Below are positions 1,125-42,608 of a DNA stretch of 64,000 nucleotides, one piece after another (positions within the stretch are counted from its first letter, which is position 1; every line of letters begins with the position of its first letter). The stretch covers positions 31,805 to 95,804 of the forward strand of contig CAZEAI010000003.1 of assembly GCA_964510105.1 (NCBI GenBank), read 5' to 3'. A program made the translations under genes and the position numbers. The notes beneath the pieces are model-generated. The model ran no database searches. It was given only the letters and a program-made list of their open reading frames with translations, and was not told where the DNA came from. This DNA comes from an uncultured bacterium (GTDB lineage Bacteria; Latescibacterota; MWCZ01).

Positions 1125-2330
1125 TCAGTCGCGATGGCCAACCGCTATCACGAACCTGCCGGTGCCGCGCTCACCCACGGTATCCATCGTCACACGGGAG
1201 AGCCCCGCGTTGGAGAACCATGTCTCCAACTGTGCTGCCGTGAGGCCCGTGTCCGCGTTCTTTCCCGATTTGAGTGCGTCGCAGACCACGATCCGTCCTC
1301 CGCGCCGTAACGTGCGGACGACGTTGGCGACTGCATCATCGGGCCGCTCCACGAGCCGCAGAACGAGCGAGCAGAACGCAACGTCGATGGAATCCCGACG
1401 CACGGGCAGCGCGAGCAGATCGCCGAACTCCATGAGCACGTTGCGCGAGCCGCTCGACGCGACACGCTCCTTCGCGACCTTGAGCATCGGAAGCGAGCGA
1501 TCGATTCCCACGACGCGGCGCACTCTCGGCGCGACGTGCATCGCGACGATGCCGGTACCGGTGCCCACGTCGAGCGCGTTCTCGTCCGAGCCGAGGCGTG
1601 CCCGGGCGGCAACGGCGGCATCGAGTTCCGACGGCACACTCGACGTGCGGATGCGATCCCACTTCCCGGCAATCCGCGCAAACAGGTCGTGAGCACGGCG
1701 TTCCACCGCGTCGCCAAGATCCAGCGGCGGCGTCAGCGGATCGACCGAGTCCAGCACATCGTCCACCGACCCGGCCTCGCCAAGCGCACGGAGCCATGCC
1801 GGCGCGACCGCGAGGAGGTACCGCCGCTTGAAGGTTGTGCGGGCGCGGTGCAGAAGCGACGTCACAGCGGATTCGCTGAGATCGAGTTCGCGTCCAGCCT
1901 CGGCGTAGGAGCGCCCTTCAGCGTCGCACAGCTCGATGACGCGGGCGTGCCTCGGGTTGAGCGACGCGAGAACCGACATGATCCGGTCGGCCTCTTGAGC
2001 TTGTCCGACGACTTCCGCCGGTGACGGGCCGGTCGCCGCGGGATCGATGGCATCGACCGTAACCGACGCGCGAAACCGCACTTGCCCGCTTGCGACGTGA
2101 TTCAGCGCGAGGCGACGCGCCACGGTTGTGAGCCAGCCGCCCAGGCTGAAGCCGTCCGCGTCGAATGGACGATGCTCCATGTAGCGGATCCAGACATCCT
2201 GGCACACGTCCCTGGCGGCCTCCGCATCCCGCACGATGGGCATCACGACACGGAACATCCGTTCATTCCACGCGTTCACGTCATCGGGCAGACCGGTCAC
2301 CGCATCCTCATGACTGACAGGTTCGAGCAT
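1125..2330 (-). CDS. ECF-type sigma-70 factor fused to a C-terminal class I SAM-dependent methyltransferase domain
   Basis: N-terminal sigma region 2 (DVCQDVWIRYMEH...WLTTVARRLALNH) and region 4 HTH (RVIELCDAEGRSYAEAGRELDLSESAVTSLLHRARTTFKRRY). C-terminal Rossmann MTase motif I (LDVGTGTGIVAMHVA) and post-I/II elements (VVGIDRS...IDVAFCSLVL...LRRGGRIVVCD). Confidence 0.7.
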   Translation of the reverse strand: MLEPVSHEDAVTGLPDDVNAWNERMFRVVMPIVRDAEAARDVCQDVWIRYMEHRPFDADGFSLGGWLTTVARRLALNHVASGQVRFRASVTVDAIDPAATGPSPAEVVGQAQEADRIMSVLASLNPRHARVIELCDAEGRSYAEAGRELDLSESAVTSLLHRARTTFKRRYLLAVAPAWLRALGEAGSVDDVLDSVDPLTPPLDLGDAVERRAHDLFARIAGKWDRIRTSSVPSELDAAVAARARLGSDENALDVGTGTGIVAMHVAPRVRRVVGIDRSLPMLKVAKERVASSGSRNVLMEFGDLLALPVRRDSIDVAFCSLVLRLVERPDDAVANVVRTLRRGGRIVVCDALKSGKNADTGLTAAQLETWFSNAGLSRVTMDTVGERGTGRFVIAVGHRD

Positions 2331-2499
2331 TGATCCGCACGGGCACTCGGCTGAACATTAGATGTACGCAAGAACAGTTCTGGTGGGCTGCCCTTCCGGG
2401 GCTATGGCTTCACGCACCTAAGATAACGCACCGCGATTGGGCAACAACGACCCAGCGACCGCGATCGGTCGGCGGAGATGGGACATCGGACACACCCCC

Positions 2500-3462
2500 A
2501 TGACACACACCGCCGGTATGCCCCGCGGATGGGCCGTTCGAGTTCCGGCCACCGCCGCGAACCTCGGCCCGGGGTTCGACTGTTTCGGTCTTGCGTTCGC
2601 GCGGTACCTGACACTCTCGGCGACGGTAGCCACCGACGATGACGGTGATTTCGTCGCCCGCATCGAAGGCGAAGGCGCCTCGGCGCTGCCCACGGACAAG
2701 TCCAACCTCATATACCGTGCGATGCTCGCCGGCTTTGGCGGCGACGGATCGGATGTCCCGGCTCTGAGCATCTCCGTGGAAAACGACATACCGCTATCGC
2801 GTGGGTTGGGCTCCAGCGCCGCCGCGACCGTGGCGGGCATCGCGATCGGGCAATTGCTCTCGATGGGCAAGGTCGAGTTGGAGCGCCTGGTCGATATCGC
2901 GGCCCACATCGAGGGACACGCCGACAACGTCGCCGCTGCGGCGTACGGTGGACTCATCGTCGCACGCGGTGAGGCCGGCAGCCCGATACAGGTCAGGCAC
3001 GTTCCGACAGCTCCGGGAGCGACCTTCGTCTGCGCTGTGCCGGCGTTCGAGTTGAGCACTAGCGACGCGAGGCATATCCTCCCAACGGAGGTCTCGCTCG
3101 CCGACGCGGTGTTCAACCTGCGGGCCGCGTCATGGATGGTCGCCGCCTGGGCCGCCGGAGACTGGCCGTCCGTTGCCGAGGCTATGGATGACCGGCTCCA
3201 CGAAGCCCACCGCACGCCGCTCATACACGGCTTCGACGCCGTTCGGAGCGCAGCGCGAGAGGCCGGCGCTCTCGGCGTGTGCGTTGCCGGATCGGGTCCG
3301 ACTCTGCTCGCGTTGACTCTCGGCGATTCCGACGCGGTCGCGAACGCGATGGTCCGAGCGTGGTCCGAGCGCGGGATCGAGTGCACGGCGGGCGTCGCAT
3401 CGGTGGATACGGATGGAATACTCGTCACAGAGCTTGGGTTGGAAGGGCGTTCACATGAATGA
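2500..3462 (+). CDS. thrB: homoserine kinase (GHMP kinase family)
   Basis: VRVPATAANLGPGFDCFGLA N-terminal motif and GHMP ATP loop (PLSRGLGSSAAATVAGIA). Length about 320 aa from the internal ATG at 2500. Confidence 0.8.
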   Translation: MTHTAGMPRGWAVRVPATAANLGPGFDCFGLAFARYLTLSATVATDDDGDFVARIEGEGASALPTDKSNLIYRAMLAGFGGDGSDVPALSISVENDIPLSRGLGSSAAATVAGIAIGQLLSMGKVELERLVDIAAHIEGHADNVAAAAYGGLIVARGEAGSPIQVRHVPTAPGATFVCAVPAFELSTSDARHILPTEVSLADAVFNLRAASWMVAAWAAGDWPSVAEAMDDRLHEAHRTPLIHGFDAVRSAAREAGALGVCVAGSGPTLLALTLGDSDAVANAMVRAWSERGIECTAGVASVDTDGILVTELGLEGRSHE

Positions 3463-3700
3463 TGGAAGTCGACGGGCAAGCGGCGCTCCCAGGCAATCGG
3501 ACGATCCGCCGAAAGGACTCGCGCCGGGTGAGTGGTGGGAATGGATTGCCATCTTCCTGGCCATCGCGGCACTCTGGCCCTGGATCCTGGGGTGGGAGAG
3601 CATCATCTGGGACATCGTTCTGTTTGGAGCCCTGGCCGCGATGGTAGTGGTGTTCATCCGGCGCTCCCGCCGAATGCGTCAAGCGTGGCGAGATGATTGA
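3455..3700 (+). CDS. small hypothetical membrane protein
   Basis: Short ORF with two hydrophobic helices (WEWIAIFLAIAALWPWILGW, IVLFGALAAMVVVFI). No homology recognised. Could be spurious. Confidence 0.3.
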   Translation: MNDGSRRASGAPRQSDDPPKGLAPGEWWEWIAIFLAIAALWPWILGWESIIWDIVLFGALAAMVVVFIRRSRRMRQAWRDD

Positions 3701-3742
3701 CGCAACGCCGTTGGCGATGCGCATGTACGCCCGGGACAGGCG

Positions 3743-5860
3743 TTGATGGAATCGGACTGGACGCTGTCGTTTCGAGCGTACGCGCCGCTCTGGTTCTCTC
3801 TCGTATGCGTCGTCGCGGCGGTCGCATGGTACGCGTATCGCGAAACAGTCCCCCCCGTTCCTGCTCGGACTCGCAGAATACTCCTCGCACTCCGCCTGAG
3901 CGCGATCGCCGCCATGGCGGTTGTCGCCCTGGGGCCCCGACTCGTTACGACAGGACTGCACGCACGTAGCCCGCGGCTGAGCATCCTCGTGGACCGCAGC
4001 GAGAGCATGTCGTTCACCGACGCCCTCGGAAGCCGCCGAGACGCCGTCGTCGCCTTGAACGCAACGCCAAGCATGGAACGTCTCCGCGAGCGGGCGGAGA
4101 CTCGATCCGTCTCCTTCGCTCGAAACGCCACGCCGTTTGACGACCAGCTACCCGCATTCGACGGCGACGCGACAGCGATAGGCGATGCCCTCCTCAGCAT
4201 GCGCCGACGGATGCCCCCACCGGACCGCGTGGTACTCATCACCGACGGAGTCAGCAATACCGGGCCCGATCCCGTGCGCGCTGCCGCCGAAGCCGGATTG
4301 CCCGTGACCGCGATCGGAGTGGGAAGCGACCTACCTCAGCGCGATGTCCGTATCGCGGGAGTCTCCACGCCGGAGATCGCGCTTGCCGGGAAACCAGCGA
4401 CACTCACCGCAACCGTGGAGAACACTGGCACGCCGGGCCGGACCGTCGCGTTGCGCGCCATAGTGGCAGGCAGAACCGTCGCACGTCGCGAGTTACGCCT
4501 CCCGGCCAACGGCCTGCGAATCGACGTGGAACTCGAACTGCCTCCGGCGTCGCCGGGCGTCCTGACAGGCCTGGTCGAGGTCGACGCGGTACCGGACGAG
4601 ATCGTCACGGAGAACAACAAGCGCCCGTTCTCGTTGGAGGTGCTCAAGGCCGAGCGCCGTGTGCTGGTGCTCGCCGGAGCGCCCAGCGCCGACCTCGCAT
4701 TCCTGCTCAGGCTCCTCGCAAGGCGCAACGGCACCCGCGTCCGGCTCTGGATGCCGCCACATAGATCACATCGGGACGGGCCTGCGCCGCTGGACCCCGA
4801 CAGCCTGGCGGATACGGACCTCGTGATCTTGCACGAACTGCCGGAGAGAGCGCTTGCCGCGCGGGAGCTTCAGTCGCTTACCGACGCCGTCGGCGACGGA
4901 GCCGGGCTGCTCGTCATACCGGGGCGCTCGCCCATCCCCGCGATGATCGCGGCGATTCTGCCGGTGGAGCTGAATCGCTCCCGGCCTCTCGAGCTTGAGC
5001 TGTCAACGCGCATCTCGACGGGGCTGGAGCGCCACCCCGCATTCGCGGACGACCCGGAATTCTCGCGATGGGCGCTCGACTGGAACGCCCTCCCACCGTT
5101 GCTGGCGGCAACGGTCGGCGCCACCGTCCGACCGGGCGGGTCCGAGCTACTTGCGAGCGAGAACGGAACGATCGCCGCCACCGGCAGGCATGGCGCGGGA
5201 CGGGTCGGGACGTTTCTCGGGCGCACGCACTGGCGTTGGGAGACGATCCCGGCGGGCATGGGTTCGCCACAGTCGCCCGCGGTTGGATTCTGGCAGGCGT
5301 TGGCCCGCTGGCTCGCCACCCGCGAGCCGGTGAGCCGTGTCCGACTGCAGAGCGACCAGGCGCACTACCGCCTTGGCGAGCCGGTCCGACTGCTCGCGCA
5401 CGTGTTCGATGACGAACACTCGCCGCTCAGCGACGCGACGGTTCGGATCGACGTGGACAACGGCGCCATGACGGCGTCCGCCGACGCTCGCCGCCGGGGC
5501 AGATACGGCGCGGAGTTTCTCGGGCTGACACCGGGCGAACACAGCGCGATCGCCGAGGCCAGGAACGGCAGCGGCTCCCTCGGCACGGCGACTGTGGAAT
5601 TCTCGGTGTCGGCCGGCGGCCTGGAACATGAGGAAACCCGCCAGCGCCGCGATGTTCTTGAGCGGATCGCGGCGGCGACGGGTGGAGACTACGCGCCTGT
5701 CGCATCCGCCGACAGCCTGCTTGCAGCGATGCAACTCGACGAGATACTCGAACCGCGCGAACGGCGCATCGATATTGGGGCGTCACCATGGCTGCTCTTC
5801 TTCATCATCGCGACGCTGACGGCAGAGTGGATCGTCCGGCGCACGCGTGGCCTGCTCTAG
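3743..5860 (+). CDS. von Willebrand factor type A domain membrane protein (BatA-like, N-terminal double-TM anchor)
   Basis: Two N-terminal TM helices followed by a vWA MIDAS motif (LSILVDRSESM) and a C-terminal TM helix (WLLFFIIATLTAEWIV). Full-length 705-aa ORF. Confidence 0.6.
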   Translation: MMESDWTLSFRAYAPLWFSLVCVVAAVAWYAYRETVPPVPARTRRILLALRLSAIAAMAVVALGPRLVTTGLHARSPRLSILVDRSESMSFTDALGSRRDAVVALNATPSMERLRERAETRSVSFARNATPFDDQLPAFDGDATAIGDALLSMRRRMPPPDRVVLITDGVSNTGPDPVRAAAEAGLPVTAIGVGSDLPQRDVRIAGVSTPEIALAGKPATLTATVENTGTPGRTVALRAIVAGRTVARRELRLPANGLRIDVELELPPASPGVLTGLVEVDAVPDEIVTENNKRPFSLEVLKAERRVLVLAGAPSADLAFLLRLLARRNGTRVRLWMPPHRSHRDGPAPLDPDSLADTDLVILHELPERALAARELQSLTDAVGDGAGLLVIPGRSPIPAMIAAILPVELNRSRPLELELSTRISTGLERHPAFADDPEFSRWALDWNALPPLLAATVGATVRPGGSELLASENGTIAATGRHGAGRVGTFLGRTHWRWETIPAGMGSPQSPAVGFWQALARWLATREPVSRVRLQSDQAHYRLGEPVRLLAHVFDDEHSPLSDATVRIDVDNGAMTASADARRRGRYGAEFLGLTPGEHSAIAEARNGSGSLGTATVEFSVSAGGLEHEETRQRRDVLERIAAATGGDYAPVASADSLLAAMQLDEILEPRERRIDIGASPWLLFFIIATLTAEWIVRRTRGLL

Positions 5861-6720
5861 CGGCGGCAGCGCTCCTCATCGTCGGAGCCGCGCGCCCGGA
5901 CGTGCTCATCACGGAGATCATGGCGAATCCCGCCGGCGACGAACACACGGGCGAATGGGTCGAATTGTACAATACAGGGACCCGTTACGCCTATATCGCG
6001 CGCTGGTTCATCGGTGTCCAGCACGCGGACACGGTCTACTCCGACGCAGTACACCGCGTCGGCACGCATCAATGGGTCGCGCCCGGCGGATACGCGGTTG
6101 TCGTCGACCCGGGTTGCGCCACGGAGGGCGGGCTCTGTCTGGACGTGCCGGACAGCGTGACGGTATTCACCATCGAGAGCGCCGGCTTCGGCAGATACGG
6201 TATCACGAACGACGGTGGCACGATTCGCCTCACGGGTTGGACTGTGCATGACGTCCAGAATCCAGAGGACGAAGTCACGTACCCGGGCTCGGCCGTCGTC
6301 GAGGGATTCTCCGTCGAGCGCATCGACTTCTCACGCAGCGGGCTGGAGCCGGACAACTGGCGCACGTCCCACGTCCCTGGCGGCACTCCCGGCGCACCGA
6401 ACCATGTTGGCCGCGAACTGCCGGCGAAGGTCGTCCTGCGGATCGGGCCCGACATCCCGACAGACCACGTCACCATCGCCGTGGAGCTGCCGGCCGCGCC
6501 GGTACAGCTCACGGTGAACGTCTTCGACCGGCACGGACGCCGCGTGCGGCGTATCGTCGACGGCACACAGCAGACAGCCGTCGTGGCGCTCGTCTGGGAC
6601 GGGCGTGACGAGCGCGGGACGCCGGTATCGACGGGGCCCTACATCGTGCGCGTCGAGGCTGTCGGGACGGAAACGTCGCAGACTTTCCGAGCGACGAAAC
6701 GGGCCATTATCGCACGATAA
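5827..6720 (+). CDS. lamin-tail-domain (LTD) protein with C-terminal FlgD-Ig/T9SS-type beta-sandwich sorting-like domain
   Basis: LTD signature (ITEIMANPAGDEHTGEWVELYNTG). C-terminal segment VNVFDRHGRRVRRIVDG...WDGRDERGTPVSTGPYIVRVEA resembles the FlgD Ig-like / type-A CTD fold. The start is uncertain: ATG 5788 or in-frame GTG 5827 preceding a signal-peptide-like stretch. It overlaps the upstream gene. Confidence 0.55.
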   Translation: MDRPAHAWPALAAAALLIVGAARPDVLITEIMANPAGDEHTGEWVELYNTGTRYAYIARWFIGVQHADTVYSDAVHRVGTHQWVAPGGYAVVVDPGCATEGGLCLDVPDSVTVFTIESAGFGRYGITNDGGTIRLTGWTVHDVQNPEDEVTYPGSAVVEGFSVERIDFSRSGLEPDNWRTSHVPGGTPGAPNHVGRELPAKVVLRIGPDIPTDHVTIAVELPAAPVQLTVNVFDRHGRRVRRIVDGTQQTAVVALVWDGRDERGTPVSTGPYIVRVEAVGTETSQTFRATKRAIIAR

Positions 6721-6786
6721 CAACACTGGAAACCCAACTCCGATACAAGCGATGAACGAGTCAGCGGGAGACCGAAGGAGAGACAC

Positions 6787-7206
6787 ATGGCGATCCCCAT
6801 GCACTACGAGACAAGCTTCGCCTGGAGCGGCGCGGATGAGCACGGGAACATTGCGTTCAAGGCGCTCGAACACCCGACGGGTTCGCCGGGCGACTCGGAT
6901 CGGCTCGACCCGGAGCATATGCTGCTCGGCGCGGCGGAAATCTGCCTATTCAACACGTTCGCGGCGATTGCGGCCAACTCGAATCTGACGATCGCCGGGT
7001 ACAGCTCCTCCGCGAGCGGCGAGCTGTCGTTCACGAAGGGGGAGGGTTACCGGTTCGAGTCGATCACCGTGAAGCCGACGGTGACCGTCGCCGAAGCCGA
7101 CCTCCGCAAGGCGGGGCGCATCCTGGAGAAAGCGCACTCGGCGTGCCTCATCACACGATCGCTGTCGTGCGAGGCCACGATGGAAGCCGAGTGGGTTACG
7201 CAGTAG
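6787..7206 (+). CDS. OsmC/Ohr family peroxiredoxin-like protein
   Basis: 139-aa protein of OsmC-family size and pattern, including the conserved Cys-containing segments (EICLFNTF, AHSACLITRSL). Confidence 0.75.
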   Translation: MAIPMHYETSFAWSGADEHGNIAFKALEHPTGSPGDSDRLDPEHMLLGAAEICLFNTFAAIAANSNLTIAGYSSSASGELSFTKGEGYRFESITVKPTVTVAEADLRKAGRILEKAHSACLITRSLSCEATMEAEWVTQ

Positions 7207-7394: not shown

Positions 7395-9932
7395 TTACGT
7401 CGAACTGCGCAAGCAAGTAGTAGTAGCCTCGGGCTCCTGCGCGGCGAGCACCGGGTAGCTCGTCAGCGCGCGCCTGAGCCACGCGAATCGCCCCTCCTCG
7501 ATTGCGGCGACGATCCCGCGTTCGATCGAGTCCGCGCCGGGAATGCTCCGACCGGATTCGCGAACGTGTCGGAGAGCGTTAAGCGCCGCTTCGGCGTCCT
7601 GCTCTACCGCCTGACGCGCGTCGTCCGGGAGGGTGACGCGAGCCGACGTTGGGGCGTCGGTGCAGGCGCATGTGAACGACCGCAACTCGTACGAGCCAAG
7701 CTCGAAACGGGCGGCGGCATCGTCGATGGACTCTCCGCTGGCAAGATCGGTCAGCGCGCACGGTGAATTGCCGAGGGAGAGTTCCACCGTCGCTCCAACG
7801 TGGTCGCGATTCACCGCGTAGACGTATCGCTGTCCGTCGACAAGCGCCGTTCGCACTGCGACGGGATCGTTCGACGGGCCGACCTGCTTGAACTTGACGG
7901 CGGGCAGGGCCCGGTACGCCCGGGCGAACGCGGCGATCTCGCCAGTGTGCGCTTTGTCGAGGAATAGCCCGCCGCGCGTGATTTCCAGCGCGTCGAGTTC
8001 GGCCAGCGCGTGGGCGTATGGCTCCAGAAAGTGCTGTGGCGCGGGAAACGCGGGCGTGATACGCAGTTGGGAGTCCCACCAGAACCCATCGTCCGGGTAC
8101 TCGGAGTTGACGCGAAAGATGCCTTCCGCCGGCTCGCCGCCCATGACCGCCAGATCGCGGGCCTGATCGTCGTCGGCGTCCGCCGGGAACCACCGGTGTT
8201 TGCCCCACGCCTCGTGCCACGCGTTGAAGATGAACGCCGACGGCCGCTCCTGCGCCGCTACCGCGCGTAGGGTATCGCCATCGAGGTAGTCGTGGTCACG
8301 GTACATCGTGAACGCGGAGAGGGGTGCGTCCTCCTCAATGGAGGATCCGCGATCGCGGCCACCACCTTCGAGTTGAAGCGTCAACCGGATGCCCGACTCA
8401 TCCTCGTAGAGCGCCGGGTCTATGCCGCCCTCGCGGAACAGCTCGACATTGGTGGGGCGCGCGCCGAGCTGGTGCTCCGGGCCGCCGCTGCCAATCACGG
8501 CGGGGATAAACGGCTCGGACCAGAGGTCCAGCCCCAGCACGAGATCGCTCCGAACGCCGCGGAGTTCGTCGCGCAGCCCGCGCATAAGGTCGCGAACCTT
8601 CGCGCATCGCCACGCGATCCAGGCGGAGCGGCAACGGCTCGTCAGGAACTCGTATCGCGCCGCGAACCGCCCGGGATCACCATCCTCTCCGGGAACGCTG
8701 ACGCCCGTCTCCTGCTCGAACAGGGAGATCGTAAGATCGTCGTATCCGGTGCGAAGAGAGCCGAACCACGTAATCGCCGGCGCCCACATCGAGAGACGCA
8801 CACCGCGGAAAGCCTTGTACGATCCGTACCGCTCGGCGATCTCGCGAACCAGCCCACGGATCGCGTCCTGAACGGTGGGATGCAGGACGTTGAACATCGG
8901 CCCCACGGGATACGGCTGGCGCGTCTTCTCGCCATATGCGTACTGGAAATCCTTCGCGACGCCGACCGATTCGTCGTTCGCCACTAGCTCGTCGTAGTTC
9001 CGGACGTTGTACGTGGGTGTCCAGTCCTGCGTGCCCGCCTGAACATGCCCCGTGGACCGCACCGCGTTGATCGTCTCGGCTCCCGCGTCGACTGCCTGCT
9101 GATCGATGTTCATCCGCTCCATGAGGCTGCCCAGACGCAGGAGCGTCATCACGCCCTCAACCCCGACACCCGCGTCGCCGGCTCGATCAAGCATCATCGC
9201 GAACCAGTCCGCGGGCCGCGAAGTCCAGCGTACGTACTGCCTGCGGTCGGCGGCGACGACCATGTCGAAGTCGCTCACGGGCTCGCGCTCGGAGGGATAG
9301 TGCGGCCCGTGGTACCATACGATGGGGTAGGCGAGGAGATCCTGCCCCGAATGCCGGGCATACGTCAAAACGTTTTCCATCCACTCCTCGCGGCTCGCGG
9401 CGCCCTCGGCGGCGCCGGTTCCGCATGGATCCTCGTACTGAATTCCTATGGCCCGGCGAGGCGTGGCATAGTCCGGGGAGGGAGGCTCGAACGCCGGGAG
9501 ATCGTCGAGTTCGTACACCTCGATCGATGCGGCCGCCGCCGGCTCATCGTGGCCCCACGTCATGAAGACGACGCTGCAATCGGTCCATCGCGGCCAGAAG
9601 ACCTGGCGAACGGTTCGCATCCCGCCGCTGAGCGGATGAGCGAAGCCCGTGTGTACGCCCGTGGACAGATCGTATCCGGTGCCGTCCTGGATGCACATGA
9701 ACCGGCGACGATCGTCCGGGAATGTGATGACCAGCGCGTGCGGGCGCCCCGTCTCCCGGACGGCGAATCGGTAGCCGAACCGCGAGAGCGGGACCCCTTC
9801 GGCTTCCCGATACCGCCCCGCCGGGCCGTCGATAACGCGGACCGCGCCGTTCGCGAAACAGCGTTCGTGCCCGTACTCATCGGTGCAGTCGATCCGCTCA
9901 AGAAGGCGGCCCTCGGTGGTTGCGGGCATCAT
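7395..9932 (-). CDS. large (about 845 aa) hypothetical protein, putative cytoplasmic glycoside-hydrolase-like enzyme co-transcribed with two GH2 genes
   Basis: Long intact ORF; the probable start MMPATTEG at 9932 directly abuts the stop of the upstream GH2 gene. No signal peptide. No family recognised by eye. Confidence 0.5.
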   Translation of the reverse strand: MMPATTEGRLLERIDCTDEYGHERCFANGAVRVIDGPAGRYREAEGVPLSRFGYRFAVRETGRPHALVITFPDDRRRFMCIQDGTGYDLSTGVHTGFAHPLSGGMRTVRQVFWPRWTDCSVVFMTWGHDEPAAAASIEVYELDDLPAFEPPSPDYATPRRAIGIQYEDPCGTGAAEGAASREEWMENVLTYARHSGQDLLAYPIVWYHGPHYPSEREPVSDFDMVVAADRRQYVRWTSRPADWFAMMLDRAGDAGVGVEGVMTLLRLGSLMERMNIDQQAVDAGAETINAVRSTGHVQAGTQDWTPTYNVRNYDELVANDESVGVAKDFQYAYGEKTRQPYPVGPMFNVLHPTVQDAIRGLVREIAERYGSYKAFRGVRLSMWAPAITWFGSLRTGYDDLTISLFEQETGVSVPGEDGDPGRFAARYEFLTSRCRSAWIAWRCAKVRDLMRGLRDELRGVRSDLVLGLDLWSEPFIPAVIGSGGPEHQLGARPTNVELFREGGIDPALYEDESGIRLTLQLEGGGRDRGSSIEEDAPLSAFTMYRDHDYLDGDTLRAVAAQERPSAFIFNAWHEAWGKHRWFPADADDDQARDLAVMGGEPAEGIFRVNSEYPDDGFWWDSQLRITPAFPAPQHFLEPYAHALAELDALEITRGGLFLDKAHTGEIAAFARAYRALPAVKFKQVGPSNDPVAVRTALVDGQRYVYAVNRDHVGATVELSLGNSPCALTDLASGESIDDAAARFELGSYELRSFTCACTDAPTSARVTLPDDARQAVEQDAEAALNALRHVRESGRSIPGADSIERGIVAAIEEGRFAWLRRALTSYPVLAAQEPEATTTCLRSST

Positions 9933-11752
9933 TCGGACCACATCTTTCGCACCGCGTGCGCGGCGTCTTTGGGGCGCCGGTGGAAGTTGAACAGCCCGTA
10001 GCCGAGGTGATATTCGTACGACCAAAGGAAGCGGCGATGCACGTCGTAGTCGGCGAAGCACCAGATGAACCCGCCAATGACGTTCTCCTCGTCCTCAAAG
10101 GCCTCCCAGAACGCGCGAATCTTCGCCGACTGGAAGTACTCGCCGGGAGGATGGTCCGTCATCAAGCCGAACTTCGTCCACTCGCCGAACTCCGCCGCGA
10201 TGATGGGACGATTCGGTACCTGCGCCCGGAGCCCACGCATCTTCTCTCGCAGCCTCGCGACGGGCTGGTCGATGAACTCCGCGCGCGGCGGCTGAGGGCT
10301 GCCCACGTACACGTTTACCGCGCTGATGTCAGTGTGCTCGTGCACCGGGTCGTCCGGCCACTCGTTGCTGCACTCGACGACGGGACGGGTCGAATCGAGT
10401 TCGTGTGCCAGATCCACGAGTTCGACGTTCCCATCCACCGTCTGCTTGGCCAGCGCGACGGAGTCCGGGTCGTCAGGCTTGTGCGACTGCGTGAGGCTCT
10501 CGTTGCTCACGCTCCAGATGAATACGCAAGCATGATTCTTGTAGGTCTTGACGATCTCGCGAAGCTGACCCTTCGCCTGATCCAGCGCCGCCGGGTCGTC
10601 GGTCTCGACCAGCGGCCGGCCCCACTGCCAGAGCGGCACCTCGACCATGTTCAGGATGCCGCGCTCGTCGCACAACTCGTAGAAGCGGCGGTGGTTGGGA
10701 TAGTGGCAGCGCAACGCGTTCGCGCCGAGCCACTGCACGAGATCGAGGTCCGTCCCGAGCTTCGCCGCGTCATGCGTCCGTCCGCTGCCGGGATAGTCCT
10801 CGTGGCGGTTCACACCCTTGATGAAGAACGGTTCGCCGTTGAGCAGCAGCCTGCCACCGTCGACCTTGAATGTCCTGAGCCCGATTCGGTGCGACCACGA
10901 ATCGGCCACGCGATCGCCATCGCACAGCTCAATGCGCAAGTCGTATAGCTCGGGAGAGTCCGGCGTCCAGAGCGACGCATCCGGCACGTCGAAGCGCAGC
11001 TCGGCCCGCGCGGAGCCATCCTCGACGCGCAGCGCGTGGGCACGGACATCCGCCGGTATTTCGACGGGCATTCCCGCCGGGTCCACGAACATCGCAACGA
11101 TGTCCCGATCAGCCGGAGCGCTTGATTCGCTTCGTACATCGACCGAGACGCTCACCGATGCGGCGGCGCCGTCGATATCCGTAACGACGGTGACGTCATC
11201 GATCCACGTCGTGTCCGTGACGCGGAGTGAGACGTCGCGATACAGACCGCCGTGATTCCACCATCCGAACTGGCGCCCGGGCGCTCGGCTCGGCATGGGC
11301 AGGTTGTCCACAGCCACGGCGATGAGGTTGTCTTCACCGTACCGAAGCAGGTGATGCACCGGCATCTCGAACGGGTTGTACCCACCGTCGTGAGCGCCCG
11401 CGTATTCGCCGTTGACGTACACGACCGTGCGGTAGTTCGCGCCCTCGCTGTGGAACACGACCCGGCGACCCTCCCAACCCTTGGGTATCCGGATGGAGCG
11501 ACGGTACCAGCCGTTGCCCTCATAGCTCCATAGGTCGTCGATGGCGGCGTTCCAGCTTGCGGGCACCGGTATGTCGAGCCATTTGGCGTCGTCGAAGCCC
11601 TCGGCAATCCATCCGAGATGCTCGCCCGACATGGACACGACGTTCGGATTCGACGGATCGAAATCCGGATCCATCCACCGCTGGTCGGCGCTGATTTCGT
11701 CGAACGCAGGGCAGAAGCGCCACTGTCCGTTCAAACTCATTTCACTTCGCAT
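9929..11752 (-). CDS. glycoside hydrolase family 2 (beta-galactosidase/beta-glucuronidase-like)
   Basis: GH2 sugar-binding N-terminus (LNGQWRF...WYRR), GH2 TIM-barrel motifs (NALRCHYP, LCDERGILN, WSVSNE). No signal peptide. Confidence 0.8.
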   Translation of the reverse strand: MRSEMSLNGQWRFCPAFDEISADQRWMDPDFDPSNPNVVSMSGEHLGWIAEGFDDAKWLDIPVPASWNAAIDDLWSYEGNGWYRRSIRIPKGWEGRRVVFHSEGANYRTVVYVNGEYAGAHDGGYNPFEMPVHHLLRYGEDNLIAVAVDNLPMPSRAPGRQFGWWNHGGLYRDVSLRVTDTTWIDDVTVVTDIDGAAASVSVSVDVRSESSAPADRDIVAMFVDPAGMPVEIPADVRAHALRVEDGSARAELRFDVPDASLWTPDSPELYDLRIELCDGDRVADSWSHRIGLRTFKVDGGRLLLNGEPFFIKGVNRHEDYPGSGRTHDAAKLGTDLDLVQWLGANALRCHYPNHRRFYELCDERGILNMVEVPLWQWGRPLVETDDPAALDQAKGQLREIVKTYKNHACVFIWSVSNESLTQSHKPDDPDSVALAKQTVDGNVELVDLAHELDSTRPVVECSNEWPDDPVHEHTDISAVNVYVGSPQPPRAEFIDQPVARLREKMRGLRAQVPNRPIIAAEFGEWTKFGLMTDHPPGEYFQSAKIRAFWEAFEDEENVIGGFIWCFADYDVHRRFLWSYEYHLGYGLFNFHRRPKDAAHAVRKMWSE

Positions 11753-38394: not shown

Positions 38395-38931
38395 ATGCAG
38401 TGTCAGCGGTGTAGTGAAAACGAAGCGACGGTCGCCGTAACGACCGTGGTCGAGGACGACCGTTCGACCGAGCACCTCTGCCGCGTCTGCGCAAAAGAGG
38501 CCGGTGTGGAACTTGGCGCGGAGTGGTCACCGGCGAAGGAGACAACGTCGCCCATGCAGGATGCGAGTGGCGAGCCGATTGCGCACGACGAAGAAGAGGA
38601 ACTCGTGTGTCCGCGATGCGGGCTTTCGTTCCGGCAGTTCAAGGAACGATACCGGGTAGGGTGCGCCGAGTGCTACGATGCATTTCGCGAGCGCATGTCG
38701 CCGCTTCTGCGAAAGGTCCACTCCGCCGATGCTCACACCGGCAAACGGCCCGGCGGAACGAAGCAGGCCGGAGCGGCTGAGAACGACGCCTGGGCGATAG
38801 AAGTGCTGAAGCGACGACTGCAAGCCGCGGTTGAGCGTGAAGAGTTCGAAGAGGCGGCGGGGCTGCGCGACCAGATCAACGAGTACGAGCGTCGCCAGAG
38901 CGCAGACCTCGAGGAGCCGGACGGGCAATGA
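38395..38931 (+). CDS. mcsA: McsA-like protein-arginine kinase activator (double CxxC zinc fingers + UVR motif)
   Basis: CQRCSE...CRVCAKE and CPRCG...CAECYDAF zinc-finger pairs. UvrB/C-like motif (EEFEEAAGLRDQINEYE). Confidence 0.7.
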   Translation: MQCQRCSENEATVAVTTVVEDDRSTEHLCRVCAKEAGVELGAEWSPAKETTSPMQDASGEPIAHDEEEELVCPRCGLSFRQFKERYRVGCAECYDAFRERMSPLLRKVHSADAHTGKRPGGTKQAGAAENDAWAIEVLKRRLQAAVEREEFEEAAGLRDQINEYERRQSADLEEPDGQ

Positions 38932-39986
38932 AGCTCCATGACCTGGTAGATCATTCCGCGGCGTGGCTGGACGCCTCGGGCCCGTACTCCGATGTGATCG
39001 TGTCGAGCCGCGTCAGGCTGGCCCGTAATCTGAGAACCGTACCGTTCACGACTCAGAGCACGCCCGACGAAGAGATCGGGGTCGTCGAAGCCGTGCTTGG
39101 CGCCGCGCAATCGTCCCCCCATCTGCGGGACGGGACGTACTTCGACGTGGCTGCCATGACGGAGGACGACCGGCAGCTCCTGGTCGAACGGCGCCTCATC
39201 AGCCCGGCGCTGGCCCTGCGGAAGGGGCGAGGCGGCGTGCTCGTGGGGCCCCACGAACGTTTCAGCATCATGATCAACGAGGAGGATCACCTACGTTTCC
39301 AGGCGCTCTTCGCCGGGTTTGAGCCGGAGACCGCGTGGTCGCTCGTTGACAGCATCGACGACGATATCTGCGGCGGTCTGGACATCGCTTTCGACGAACA
39401 GATGGGCTACCTGACCGCGTGCCCGACGAACATCGGCACGGGACTGCGCGCCTCAACGCTCATCCATCTGCCGGGACTCGTGCTGGTGGAGTCGATCGAA
39501 GAGGTGCTCCGAGGGATCAACCAGGTGGGCCTCACCGTAAGAGGATTTTACGGGGAGGGCACTGAAGTCGTCGGTAGTTTGTTTCAAGTATCGAACCAGG
39601 TGACGCTCGGAACGTCCGAGTCGGATATCCTGGAAATGCTGGCACGAGTCGTGCGACAGATCATCGACTACGAATACGACGCTCGGCAGACGCTCCTACG
39701 GGACGCAGAGGCGCAGATTGAGGACAAGATCGGCCGGGCAATCGGGATACTCACTCACGCGCACGTTCTGAGCGGCCAGGAGTTCATGAACCTGACCTCG
39801 GCAGTCCGGCTCGGAGTCGGGCTCGGCATACTGAAGCGCCCTGAGACGAAGTTGCTGAACGAACTCATGGTGCAGACGCAGCCGTCGCACATTCAGCGCC
39901 GGGCGGGTTCCCCGGTTGAAAGCGACGAACGCGATCAGCACCGTGCGGAGCTAGTGCGTTCCCGGCTCGCCAACGGCACGACGTAA
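38928..39986 (+). CDS. mcsB: protein-arginine kinase McsB (ATP:guanido phosphotransferase)
   Basis: Phosphagen-kinase active-site motif CPTNIGTGLRAS and flanking conserved segments. 4-bp overlap with mcsA. Confidence 0.85.
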   Translation: MKLHDLVDHSAAWLDASGPYSDVIVSSRVRLARNLRTVPFTTQSTPDEEIGVVEAVLGAAQSSPHLRDGTYFDVAAMTEDDRQLLVERRLISPALALRKGRGGVLVGPHERFSIMINEEDHLRFQALFAGFEPETAWSLVDSIDDDICGGLDIAFDEQMGYLTACPTNIGTGLRASTLIHLPGLVLVESIEEVLRGINQVGLTVRGFYGEGTEVVGSLFQVSNQVTLGTSESDILEMLARVVRQIIDYEYDARQTLLRDAEAQIEDKIGRAIGILTHAHVLSGQEFMNLTSAVRLGVGLGILKRPETKLLNELMVQTQPSHIQRRAGSPVESDERDQHRAELVRSRLANGTT

Positions 39987-40097
39987 GCGAGTCGGCTATC
40001 GCAGCAACGTAGCGCTCCGGAAGGCAGCGAGTCAGCGTCAGGGCAACACGTTACCTCAACACTACCCGCAGTACATAATGAGTCGGAGGCCATCTCC

Positions 40098-42608
40098 ATG
40101 GATCAGATGTTTACGGAACGCGTCAAGAAGGTGATGATTCTCGCTCGCGAGGAGTCTCAGCGTCTCGGGCACGACTATGTCGGCACCGAGCATCTTCTGC
40201 TGGGACTCATCAAGGAGGGCGAGGGAGTCGCCATCACGGTCCTGACTAACCTCGGGCAGGACCCCGATACCATTCGCCAGTCCGTAGAGGACGCGGTGGC
40301 TCAGACCGGCGGCCAGATGCTCATGGGGCAGGCGCCGTTCACACCGAAGGCGAAGGAGATCCTCGATCTCGCGACGAAAGAGGCGAAGGAGATGAAGGTG
40401 CAGTACGTCGGCACCGAGCATCTCCTGCTGGCGCTGACGAAGGATCGCGAGAGCGTGGCCGCGCAGATACTCACGGCGCTCGGCGCGGACTACAAGACGA
40501 TCAAGGAAGAGATCATCTCCGTCATCACCGGCGGCGGCAAGGCGGGGCAGCCTAAGGACAAGAAGAGCAAGACGCCCTTCCTCGACCACTTCGGCCGCGA
40601 CCTCACGAAAATGGCGCGCGAAGACGCACTCGATCCCATCATCGGTCGCGAGAAAGAAATCGAGCGAGTCAGTCAGGTGCTCAGCCGGCGGAAGAAGAAC
40701 AATCCGGTGTTGATCGGGGAACCGGGCGTCGGTAAGACGGCGATCGCCGAAGGACTCGCGCAGAAAATCATCGCGAAGGAAGTACCCCACGTCCTCGAGA
40801 ACAAGCGTGTGGTGACGCTCGACATGGGCGGCATCGTCGCGGGAACGAAGTACCGCGGTCAGTTCGAGGAGCGCGTCAAGGCGATCATGAATGAGCTGGT
40901 GCAGAACCGCGAAGTGATCATCTTCATCGACGAGCTGCACACGATCGTCGGCGCGGGGTCCGCAGAAGGGACGCTGGACGCCTCCAACCTGTTCAAGCCG
41001 GCGCTTTCGCGGGGCGAGCTTCAGTGCATCGGCGCGACGACACTCGACGAGTACCGGAAGTACATCGAGAAGGACGGAGCGCTCGAACGACGGTTCCAGA
41101 CGATCATGATCGAGCCGCCCTCGCAGGAGGACACAGTCCAGATACTGCTCGGATTGCGCCCGAAATACGAGGAGCATCACCGGGTGCAATATCCGGACGC
41201 TTCGATCGAGTCCGCGGTCATTATGGCTGAACGCTACCTCCACGACCGGTACCAGCCGGACAAGTCGCTCGACGTGATCGACGAAGCTGGGTCGCGCGTG
41301 CGTCTCAGTCGCGTGTCCGTCCCCGATGAAGTGAAGGAACTCGAGGTCCAGATCGCCGACATCGAACGCCAAAAGGAAAGCGCGGTCAACGAGCAGGAGT
41401 TCGAGAATGCCGCGAACCTGCGCGACACGGAACGGCGCCTGCTCGAACAGCTTGCGGCTGCGCGCAAGGACTGGGAGCAGTCGCGCGAGCACGATGTCGT
41501 GGAGGTCACCGAGGACGATATCGCATACGTCGTCAGCAACATGACGGGCATCCCGGTGTTCCGGCTGGCGAAGGACGAATCGACGAAGTTGCTTCACATG
41601 GATGACGAGCTTCAGAAGCGAGTCGTCGGACAGGAGAACGCGATCAGCGCCGTCTCGCGAGCCATCAGGCGGTCTCGCAGTGGGCTGAAGGACCCGAACA
41701 GGCCCATCGGTTCGTTCGTGTTCCTCGGCCCGACCGGCGTTGGCAAGACGGAACTTGGCAAGGCTCTCGCGTCGCAGCTTTTCGACGACGAGGACGCGGC
41801 GATCATCATCGACATGTCGGAGTTCATGGAGAAGTTCGCTGTAAGCCGTCTCGTGGGAGCGCCCCCGGGCTACGTCGGATACGACGAAGGCGGGCAGCTC
41901 ACGGAGAAGGTGCGGCGGAAGCCCTACTCGGTGATTCTCCTGGATGAGGTGGAAAAGGCGCACCCGGATGTGTTCAACATCCTGCTCCAGGTGCTCGACG
42001 ACGGCCGTCTCACCGACAGCTACGGTCGGAAGGTCGATTTCCGGAACACGATCCTCATCATGACGTCGAATCTGGGTAGCCGGGATATCGGCGACCTGAC
42101 GGGGTTCGGCTTCACGGCCCGCGATGGAATCCCCTCGCGCTCCGAGATGGAGACGGCCATTAACCGTGAACTCAAGCAGGCATTCAATCCGGAGTTCCTG
42201 AATCGTATCGACGAGGTCGTGATCTTCAACACGCTCACACATGAGAACATGCTGGAAATCTGCGACATCGTCATCGCCGACGTGCGGAAGCGCGTGGTGG
42301 ACCGCGCGCTCTCGATCGAGCTCGGCGACGATGCGAGGAATCTCCTGGCGGAGAAGGGCTTCGATCCGAAACTCGGTGCCCGTCCCCTGAAGCGCACCAT
42401 CCAGCGACTGCTGGAGGATCCGCTATCGGAGGAGATTCTCGCCGGGAAGTTCGCCGATGGCTCGACGATCCTCGTGGGCACAGACGGCGAAGCTTTGACC
42501 TTCACGTTGGCGGACACGCCGGATGCTGGGTCGGACAACGGCGGGGATGGAGGCTCGGGAACCGCCGAGCCGACGGAACCTGTCTCCGTCGACGCGGAAT
42601 CGAACTGA
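40098..42608 (+). CDS. clpC: ATP-dependent Clp protease ATP-binding subunit ClpC
   Basis: Double Clp_N repeats, two AAA+ modules (GEPGVGKT; GPTGVGKT), UVR motif between modules, sensor and ClpB_D2-small. 836 aa. Confidence 0.9.

Follow-up and report, generated by a model that had tools for sequence, protein, structure and literature searches.

An ECF sigma factor with a SahR-type methyltransferase-fold extension in an uncultured Latescibacterota bacterium, and its possible gating by SAM or SAH

Sigma factors of the extracytoplasmic function (ECF) type make up a major signalling system of bacteria. The inputs known for them comprise anti-sigma factors, phosphorylation and a few fused extensions (SnoaL, TPR, Cys-rich and transmembrane), and for most extension types the ligand is unknown. 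A gene in a 64,000-nucleotide stretch of an uncultured Latescibacterota genome (contig CAZEAI010000003.1; the whole stretch is called the window below) encodes an ECF sigma factor that continues, in the same polypeptide, into a class I methyltransferase (MTase) fold, which raises the question of what such a fold does on a sigma factor. The comparative analysis described here places the extension in the subfamily of the SahR effector domain, and we put at about even the chance that the protein is a one-component ECF sigma factor gated by binding of S-adenosylmethionine (SAM) or S-adenosylhomocysteine (SAH), without an anti-sigma partner.

Architecture of the fusion protein

The gene and the parts of its product, in amino acids (aa), are as follows.

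1125..2330, minus strand: fusion coding sequence, 401 aa plus stop (open reading frame list; Pfam and NCBIfam matches; identical protein on three independent contigs)
2088..2261, minus strand: sigma region 2, aa 24-81 (PF04542 Sigma70_r2, 42.7 bits against a gathering cut-off (GA) of 24; predicted local distance difference test score (pLDDT) ~90)
1836..1988, minus strand: sigma region 4, aa 115-165 (PF08281 Sigma70_r4_2, 45.9 bits against GA 25.7)
1716..1820, minus strand: conserved linker from sigma region 4 to the MTase domain, aa 171-205 (mean identity 0.55 in the window clade; partly helical)
1128..1715, minus strand: SahR-type class I MTase-fold domain, aa 206-401 (Pfam, AlphaFold2 model, Foldseek, 43% identity to Rhizobium SahR)
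1647..1661, minus strand: W224-D-R-I-R228 signature in the N-terminal helix of that domain (alignments with SahR proteins)
1551..1577, minus strand: motif I, A252-LDVGTGTG-260, the glycine-rich SAM/SAH loop (conservation in 43 fused proteins)

The gene is one ATG-started open reading frame (ORF) of 401 aa without an internal stop, and three contigs, each from a different sample, encode an identical protein. Sigma region 4 also matches PF04545 (40.7 bits against GA 24.1) and contains the family-wide recognition-helix motif S-A-V-T-S-L-L-x-R-A-R; it is separated from region 2 by a spacer of ~33 aa with low pLDDT. A Pfam scan of the protein gave no match to Sigma70_r1 or Sigma70_r3 at E<=1, and the NCBIfam model TIGR02937 (sigma70-ECF) matches at 61.5 bits (cut-off 42.9). 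Among solved structures, ECF sigma factors match the N-terminal 207 aa end to end (SigE at 6e-12, then SigL, SigK, SigJ and SigW), the stretch covered being aa ~19-174. With sigma regions 2 and 4, a short spacer, the TIGR02937 match and neither region 1.1 nor region 3, the N-terminal half classes by its sequence as an ECF (group IV) sigma-70 factor.

The C-terminal half matches Methyltransf_11 (aa 253-349, 67.7 bits against GA 21.2) and Methyltransf_25 (63.1 bits against GA 27), and Methyltransf_11, 25 and 31 together cover ~aa 248-353 at 63-68 bits, above their gathering scores. All specific NCBIfam equivalogs score below their own cut-offs, the best being NF058625 (67 against 130). Besides motif I, the domain has D277 at the acidic end of strand beta2 and a G303-D304 pair after beta3. 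The preliminary description of this locus, made from the sequence alone, had reported an ECF sigma factor with intact regions 2 and 4 joined in one polypeptide to a class I SAM-dependent MTase, and had named motif I GTGTG, the acidic end of strand 2 and motif post-II. That architecture holds up: the domain searches it proposed (sigma region 2, sigma region 4, Methyltransf_11/25) all score above curated cut-offs, and the named motifs exist and are conserved.

A small family of sigma-methyltransferase fusions

Whether fused orthologs exist elsewhere had been left as a question, and they do, as ten close orthologs and a wider family. A word-indexed search of 5.8 billion proteins found ten full-length fused orthologs, mostly of 399-424 aa and 47-68% identical to the window protein, together with one further fused protein at 30% identity; the ten keep the length and reading frame of the window protein. 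An exhaustive profile search of 1.84 billion cluster representatives (clusters at 50% identity) gave ~35 full-length single-stretch matches of 390-440 aa and 3 fragments, and the fused family amounts to about 35-40 clusters among these representatives. A profile search of the 5.8-billion-protein database added only P0154. Full-length relatives occur in 2 of 185,579 species-representative genomes, both of them metagenome-assembled. The fusion family is rare, and where its members carry a database name it is 'RNA polymerase sigma factor (sigma-70 family)'. One ortholog, P0005 (378 aa; L090 7907-8000), seems to have a mis-called start in the database, as an in-frame ATG 94 nucleotides (nt; ~31 codons) upstream restores its conserved '...EEEYVAWNRRI' N-terminal segment.

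Conservation was followed at two depths. Within the window clade (mean pairwise identity by region, 10 proteins), the MTase core is the best conserved region at 0.65, with 39 of 108 positions invariant, followed by sigma region 2 (0.58), the linker between sigma region 4 and the MTase domain (0.55) and sigma region 4 (0.53). On these identities, both halves and their joint are under purifying selection. Across a wide set of 43 fused proteins, ~22-30% identical to the window protein, D254, G256 and D277 of the MTase domain never vary, and conservation reaches at least 90% at G258 and G260. In the recognition helix of sigma region 4, R162 is invariant and S158, L159, L160, A163 and R164 are at least 90% conserved. 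The C-terminal extension of 230 aa is kept in all 43. Degenerate MTase motifs, which the preliminary description had named as a result that would undo its reading, are thus not what the family displays.

Relationship of the C-terminal domain to SahR

In the PDB, every one of the top 50 Foldseek matches is a protein of the SAM-MTase fold, with identities of 14-25%. By sequence, the best relatives of solved structure are BH2331 and YcgJ (E about 1e-10), both uncharacterised. The best non-fused sequence matches of the C-terminal half are nearly all proteins of ~320 aa that combine an ArsR/SmtB helix-turn-helix (HTH) with this MTase type. A homolog in Rhizobium sp. Q54, 43% identical over aa 217-351 (136 aa, E 7e-27), is encoded directly upstream of metF and metH. 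In nine metagenomic loci with this MTase-domain type, ahcY lies downstream, mostly immediately after, and all eight full-length ORFs among these loci carry an ArsR-type HTH. Because ahcY or metF-metH lies directly downstream, these context-verified ArsR-MTase relatives are taken to be SahR-type regulators. Published work describes SahR as an SAH-responsive ArsR-family regulator of ahcY, metH, metF and metK (PMC4239095).

The C-terminal half of the window protein therefore groups, on sequence, with the SahR effector domain in one subfamily and is not a generic methyltransferase. Alignments with SahR proteins reveal a shared 'WDxxR' helix; W224 and D225 are invariant in alignments A1 and A3. According to the 2014 work of Novichkov and colleagues, SAH binding reportedly releases SahR from DNA. 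No solved SahR structure for a comparison of pockets was found among the structures searched. Pfam found no winged HTH (wHTH) of the ArsR/SmtB type (HTH_20 or HTH_5) in the fusion protein, which is not itself a member of the SahR family because sigma domains stand in place of the ArsR wHTH.

The SahR-type MTase subfamily is a mobile module. The same domain also occurs as a standalone protein of ~210 aa (P0151, P0153) and, in either order, joined to another MTase-like domain, a cysteine-rich one that we read as ArsM-like (P0135, P0138, P0140, P0143, P0145, P0150).

The linker and the predicted structure

AlphaFold2 models reached a pLDDT of 80.9 with 12 sequences and of 86.7, with a predicted template modelling score (pTM) of 0.65, with 43 sequences; the latter model is confident for all three modules. 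In the models the recognition helix of sigma region 4 runs to ~aa 175 and is followed by two short helices (178-193) and a long helix (205-231). The long helix is predicted to belong to the MTase-fold domain and contains F217...W224-D-R-I-R228; seven strands follow over aa 251-400, with pLDDT above 90 across most of the core. The '~100-aa linker' of the preliminary description is thus an artefact of the short Pfam core model: the linker measures ~35 aa, and the rest is the N-terminal helix of the MTase domain. The pTM of 0.65 seems higher than would be expected of freely tethered domains, and in the window clade the linker is conserved at the level of the sigma domains.

Two linker motifs, 'YLLAxAPxWLRxLA' and '(I/V)DP.xPP.DL', are common to the fused clades A, B and C and are absent from ArsR-type SahR proteins. 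Their presence in the fused clades and absence from ArsR-type relatives points to a common fusion ancestor for the three clades.

Gene neighbourhoods of the fused family

In sister clade B, whose members are ~25% identical to the window protein, the fusion gene is linked to the SAH hydrolase gene ahcY and preceded by a conserved element.

L096 9248-10504: clade-B ahcY (S-adenosylhomocysteine hydrolase); equivalents in L098, L099, L100, L102, L105, L106 and L109
L096 7972-8001; L098 5972; L100 3589; L101 386; L102 29; L103 515: CGAAAG-N16-TGTATA(T) sites
L104 171; L105 4416; L106 5955; L107 1029; L108 1099; L109 3558: CGAAAG-N16-TGTATA(T) sites, continued
L101 150-260 and 1590-1700; L103 300-400 and 1715-1800: low-complexity repeats

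The ahcY gene lies directly downstream of the fusion gene, on the same strand and after gaps of 54-293 nt, in all eight informative clade-B loci, and its copies are 81-86% identical among these eight. The two genes probably form an operon, and ahcY is almost certainly the output of the clade-B sigma factor. Each of the 12 clade-B loci for which upstream sequence exists has a single CGAAAG-N16-TGTATA(T) element, placed right in front of the fusion gene; the element was found nowhere else in these loci, nor in the loci of clades A and C. It overlaps the start codon in some clade-B loci and is followed by an AAGGA Shine-Dalgarno sequence in others. This makes it a strong candidate for the cognate, autoregulated promoter or operator of the sigma-ahcY operon, and a leaderless-mRNA signal is a further possibility. 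A likeness between the sequences upstream of the sigma gene and upstream of ahcY in L101 and L102 was set aside, as the flanks there are rich in short low-complexity repeats. Tandem repeats of this kind (GGGAACT-like, GGTTGAAT-like or AAAGA-rich) flank some clade-B fusion genes.

The other sister clades have different company. Two clade-D fusion genes adjoin operons for DmsABC-type molybdopterin oxidoreductases (L094 402-4147 and L167 9568-13343), which hints that input and output differ in this clade; the L167 gene also neighbours genes for a methanol:corrinoid methyltransferase (MtaB) and a B12-binding protein. One member of clade C sits within a holB-PSP1-[fusion]-DUF494-topA array.

In the window clade, the conserved partner is the divergent homoserine kinase gene thrB.

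2500..3462, plus strand: divergent homoserine kinase gene thrB (TIGR00191, 254.5 bits against a cut-off of 168)
2331..2499, no strand assigned: divergent intergenic region between the fusion gene and thrB, 169 nt, which must hold the promoters of both genes
2418..2425, minus strand: TATCTTAG box, candidate -10 element ~85 nt before the ATG of the fusion gene (TATCTT in 6 of 7 loci)

The divergent pairing is found in the window and in seven orthologous loci, down to 49% identity, whereas the downstream side varies; no other neighbour stays with the fusion gene across the whole clade, which makes thrB a candidate target. In the window, the gene downstream of the fusion gene is convergent. Four neighbouring ORFs (162, 81, 705 and 888 aa) were scanned and no anti-sigma domain turned up in them, though divergent anti-sigma factors could escape such a scan. 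ECF sigma factors regulated by C-terminal extensions typically have no anti-sigma gene nearby (PMC7826278, ECF classification 2.0).

The string of genes beside the fusion gene (2500-7206, plus strand) consists of thrB, a membrane ORF (~81-95 aa), a VWA/Ig-like protein (~705 aa) weakly similar to BatA, a protein with LTD and FlgD_ig domains, and an OsmC-family peroxiredoxin. It is kept in most of the window clade and is odd company for a lone thrB.

Promoter candidates in the window clade

The preliminary description had proposed looking for an ECF promoter of the AAC-N17-CGT type upstream of the gene. None was found there, nor was a classical ECF autoregulatory promoter (GGAAC/AAC-N16-17-CGT). 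One GGAAC-N16-CGT sequence faces thrB (2252-2275, plus strand); it falls on a conserved peptide of the sigma coding region and hence cannot be judged. The window as a whole holds 23 matches to GGAAC-N15-18-CGT, where 12.1 +/- 3.3 are expected and none of 100 shuffles reached 23; most of these matches are probably within coding sequence, and codon bias or a multitude of ECF-type promoters may account for the excess.

The intergenic region holds one conserved element. Of 7 orthologous loci, 6 have TATCTT, against a maximum of 5 in 30 shuffles, and the box at 2418-2425 is the only TATCTTWG in the 64 kb; weak TTG/TGGAC-like -35 candidates precede it. It fails a sigma-70 consensus scan. It was rejected as a Bacteroidetes-type 'TAnnTTTG' housekeeping element used across the genome, because TAnnTTTG occurs once in the 64 kb against 2.8 expected, and it stays a locus-specific element. 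The 8-mer GCACGGGC, present in 4 of 7 loci at inconsistent positions and orientations, was also rejected. The same holds for any known RNA, SAM/SAH riboswitches included, in the leader or elsewhere in the window: Rfam gave no match even at E<=1.

A model of ligand-gated sigma activity

The following model, which predicts ligand binding, allosteric gating with its sign, and target genes, builds on the architecture, ligand-binding motif conservation, family relationships and gene linkage described above. The N-terminal 170 aa, an ordinary sigma2-sigma4 module, would bind core RNA polymerase and select promoters, and the SahR-type domain would bind SAH and/or SAM. Occupancy by the ligand would alter the packing of the MTase-fold domain and the linker against sigma2/sigma4, switching the sigma factor between an auto-inhibited and an active state. 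Because the domain itself would switch the state of the sigma factor, no separate anti-sigma factor would be needed. A sigma factor can only activate, so the ligand would have to activate for a SahR-like physiology to result. The fusion would thereby probably tie the choice of promoters to the methylation status of the cell.

In clade B, accumulating SAH would activate the sigma factor, raising the levels of the sigma factor itself and of AhcY, and SAH would be removed. In the window clade, the same principle of sensing may apply with thrB as the most likely local target, at lower confidence in both ligand and target; a thrB target would sit at the threonine/methionine branch point. Plant threonine synthase is activated by SAM, and control of thrB by SAM status would echo that. 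The preliminary description had guessed at sensing of SAM or another small molecule, or at a built-in anti-sigma-like regulator. This guess gains comparative support from the SahR effector family and from the clade-B ahcY linkage, from which ligand binding itself is a prediction. We hold more tentatively, as a possible but rather doubtful set of claims, that this is the first sigma factor gated directly by SAM/SAH, that clade B has an autoregulated sigma-ahcY operon and that the window clade controls thrB by SAM status.

Several observations weigh against the model, most of them in the window clade. The pocket was compared in an alignment of the window clade with fusions of clades B, C, D and E, four ahcY- or metF/metH-linked SahR proteins and one standalone member. 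The window clade retains the WDRIR helix, motif I, D277, the GD motif and the beta4 and beta5 strands. However, where most relatives have 'LHH' after beta4, the window protein has LRL (LRL or LRH across its clade); the clade also lacks ~8 residues of the 'H-x12-D-L-W-L-G-F' segment after beta5, and this is its least conserved part (0.26 mean identity). 'LHH' and 'H-x12-D-x-W-x-G-F' are present in the fused clades B and C and in ahcY-linked SahR proteins, and largely so in clades D and E; Rhizobium SahR itself is partly divergent at these positions. In class I methyltransferases, both places border on the cofactor's methionine/methyl side. In the window clade the pocket is thus conserved in its adenosine-binding half and remodelled in the half that would distinguish SAM from SAH or hold a substrate. 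Because these signature segments are lost, SAH specificity is not simply transferable to this clade, and because the remodelled side is the methyl-proximal one, its ligand may be SAM or a related adenosyl compound and not SAH.

Gene context adds to these points. Genes for ahcY, metK, metF and metH are absent from the 64-kb window and from the window-clade loci (E<1e-8), the thrB link could be inherited synteny, and no ECF-type promoter is definable for the window clade. Since clade D adjoins DmsABC-type genes, the inputs and outputs of the fused family have diversified. Neighbour-joining on the MTase domain by itself resolves neither the deep branching nor whether all fusions go back to one origin.

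Alternative explanations

The domain might instead be a catalytically active MTase, making the protein bifunctional: it would methylate the sigma factor itself, RNA polymerase, a nascent transcript or some small molecule, and would couple transcription to turnover as a 'trigger enzyme', not to mere occupancy by a ligand. We consider this unlikely, although all canonical SAM-binding motifs are intact, the structural neighbours are mostly real methyltransferases, and the standalone (~210 aa) and cysteine-rich-MTase-fused relatives look more enzyme-like. The nearest relatives of known biology, the SahR proteins, reportedly act as sensors; the 'LHH' and 'H..DLW' segments beside the methyl-transfer side of the pocket have been lost in the window clade; and no candidate substrate gene is linked to the fusion gene. 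We know of no universal catalytic residues among class I SAM-MTases, and the preliminary label of a 'catalytic' extension is unproven on sequence.

A SahR-like repressor, in which the HTH of sigma region 4 merely replaces the ArsR wHTH and core RNA polymerase is not bound, is improbable. Profile alignments of some ArsR-MTase proteins do extend through the sigma4 region, and the recognition helix TSLLxRAR lacks two basic residues, found in E. coli sigmaE, that are common in ECF sigma4. But sigma region 2, for which a mere HTH donor would have no need, is retained above its Pfam cut-off and conserved like the rest of the protein, and both TIGR02937 and solved ECF sigma factors match over the whole N-terminus.

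Just as improbable is an extension that acts independently of any ligand, as a structural or protein-interaction module like the TPR domain of ECF42, with the sigma factor controlled mainly through its own transcription. The conserved TATCTT box with its weak TTG/TGGAC-like -35 upstream, and the lack of an apparent ECF-type autoregulatory motif, would fit such control. The invariance of D254, G256 and D277 across a divergent family, however, is hard to explain without binding of a nucleotide ligand.

An artefact in which a sequencing frameshift or an assembly chimera joined two adjacent genes, the other result named beforehand as fatal to the preliminary description, is rejected as next to impossible, given the identical 401-aa product on three contigs, the uninterrupted frame, orthologs of the same length and frame, and about 35-40 full-length fusion clusters with a conserved linker.

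Comparison with known systems

The fusion shares with SahR the MTase-fold effector subfamily, with its 'F..A..WDxxR' helix, motif I, acidic beta2 residue and GD motif, and the clade-B fusion gene is located directly upstream of ahcY, as is sahR. It differs in that SahR is a repressor with an ArsR wHTH, whereas here an ECF sigma2-sigma4 module would act as an activator that recruits RNA polymerase. The conserved linker is specific to the fusions, and the window clade lacks 'LHH' and 'H-x12-DLWLGF' and is linked to thrB, not ahcY.

Like ECF41 (for example M. tuberculosis SigJ), the fusion is a soluble sigma factor without an anti-sigma factor and with a C-terminal fold of a small-molecule-binding type; the N-terminal region of the window protein matches SigJ (5xe7) at E 4e-6. 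The SnoaL-like extension of ECF41 is thought to contact sigma2/sigma4 and the linker, gating by conformational change (PMC8999054). The fold there is SnoaL/NTF2-like, whereas here it is a Rossmann-like MTase of ~195 aa, and the ligand is unknown there, whereas homology here points to the SAM/SAH class. The concept of a sigma factor that itself senses and is switched by a ligand on its own extension is also that of CorE/CorE2 (ECF238; PMC8999054). In CorE, a Cys-rich tail of ~20 aa binds a metal ion (PMC7826278), in contrast to the full nucleotide-cofactor-binding domain present here. Enzymes of the Methyltransf_11/25 type (UbiE/UbiG/YcgJ/BH2331-like) have the same fold and SAM-binding motifs but only 15-25% identity in structure-based comparison, and the window domain groups with regulator-fused SahR-type domains, not with characterised enzymes.

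The preliminary description had called a methyltransferase extension unusual among ECF sigma factors, and the literature searched agrees. Such an extension is absent from the ECF classification 2.0 (paper and preprint) and from later reviews of non-canonical and stress ECFs, supplementary group descriptions being outside the scope. Full-text literature searches, to which subscription literature was likewise external, returned no report of a sigma-MTase fusion. The only 'methyltransferase' in those ECF texts is a neighbouring O6-methylguanine-DNA methyltransferase gene in ECF122. The fusion is thus read as an ECF sigma factor with a regulatory C-terminal extension, built here from a SahR-type sensor domain and of a kind new to the literature searched.

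Other genes of the window

The remaining genes of the window are housekeeping genes (priA, lysS, lolCE, mcsB, a Clp ATPase gene, mutS2 and asnB), and no tRNA gene was found in it. By its lysyl-tRNA synthetase (LysRS), the organism stands closest to Candidatus Latescibacteria (68% identity). At 38928-42605 (plus strand) of this Latescibacterota-like genome, a gene for the McsB protein-arginine kinase, above its NCBIfam cut-off, adjoins a gene for a Clp-family AAA+ ATPase, a pairing best known from Firmicutes. An ORF of 888 aa (7395-10061, minus strand), located upstream of two GH2 genes, has only a sub-threshold GHL10 glycosyl-hydrolase-like match; it is conserved in L001, where no Pfam family is recorded for it.

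Significance

The MTase extension brings to the ECF sigma factors a specific SAM/SAH ligand hypothesis from a characterised homolog, and in one clade ahcY is added as a defined output gene, along with a candidate promoter that is sharply conserved. With ligand hypothesis, output gene and candidate promoter in hand, the family offers a tractable model for the switching of a sigma factor in cis by a small-molecule-binding domain. Synthetic biology could gain from it a compact, orthogonal sigma part gated by a metabolite. If the model is true, the fusions would be a sigma-factor counterpart of SahR and of SAM/SAH riboswitches, and would add a new layer of methionine/SAM-cycle regulation in uncultivated bacteria of the Fibrobacteres-Chlorobi-Bacteroidetes (FCB) group.

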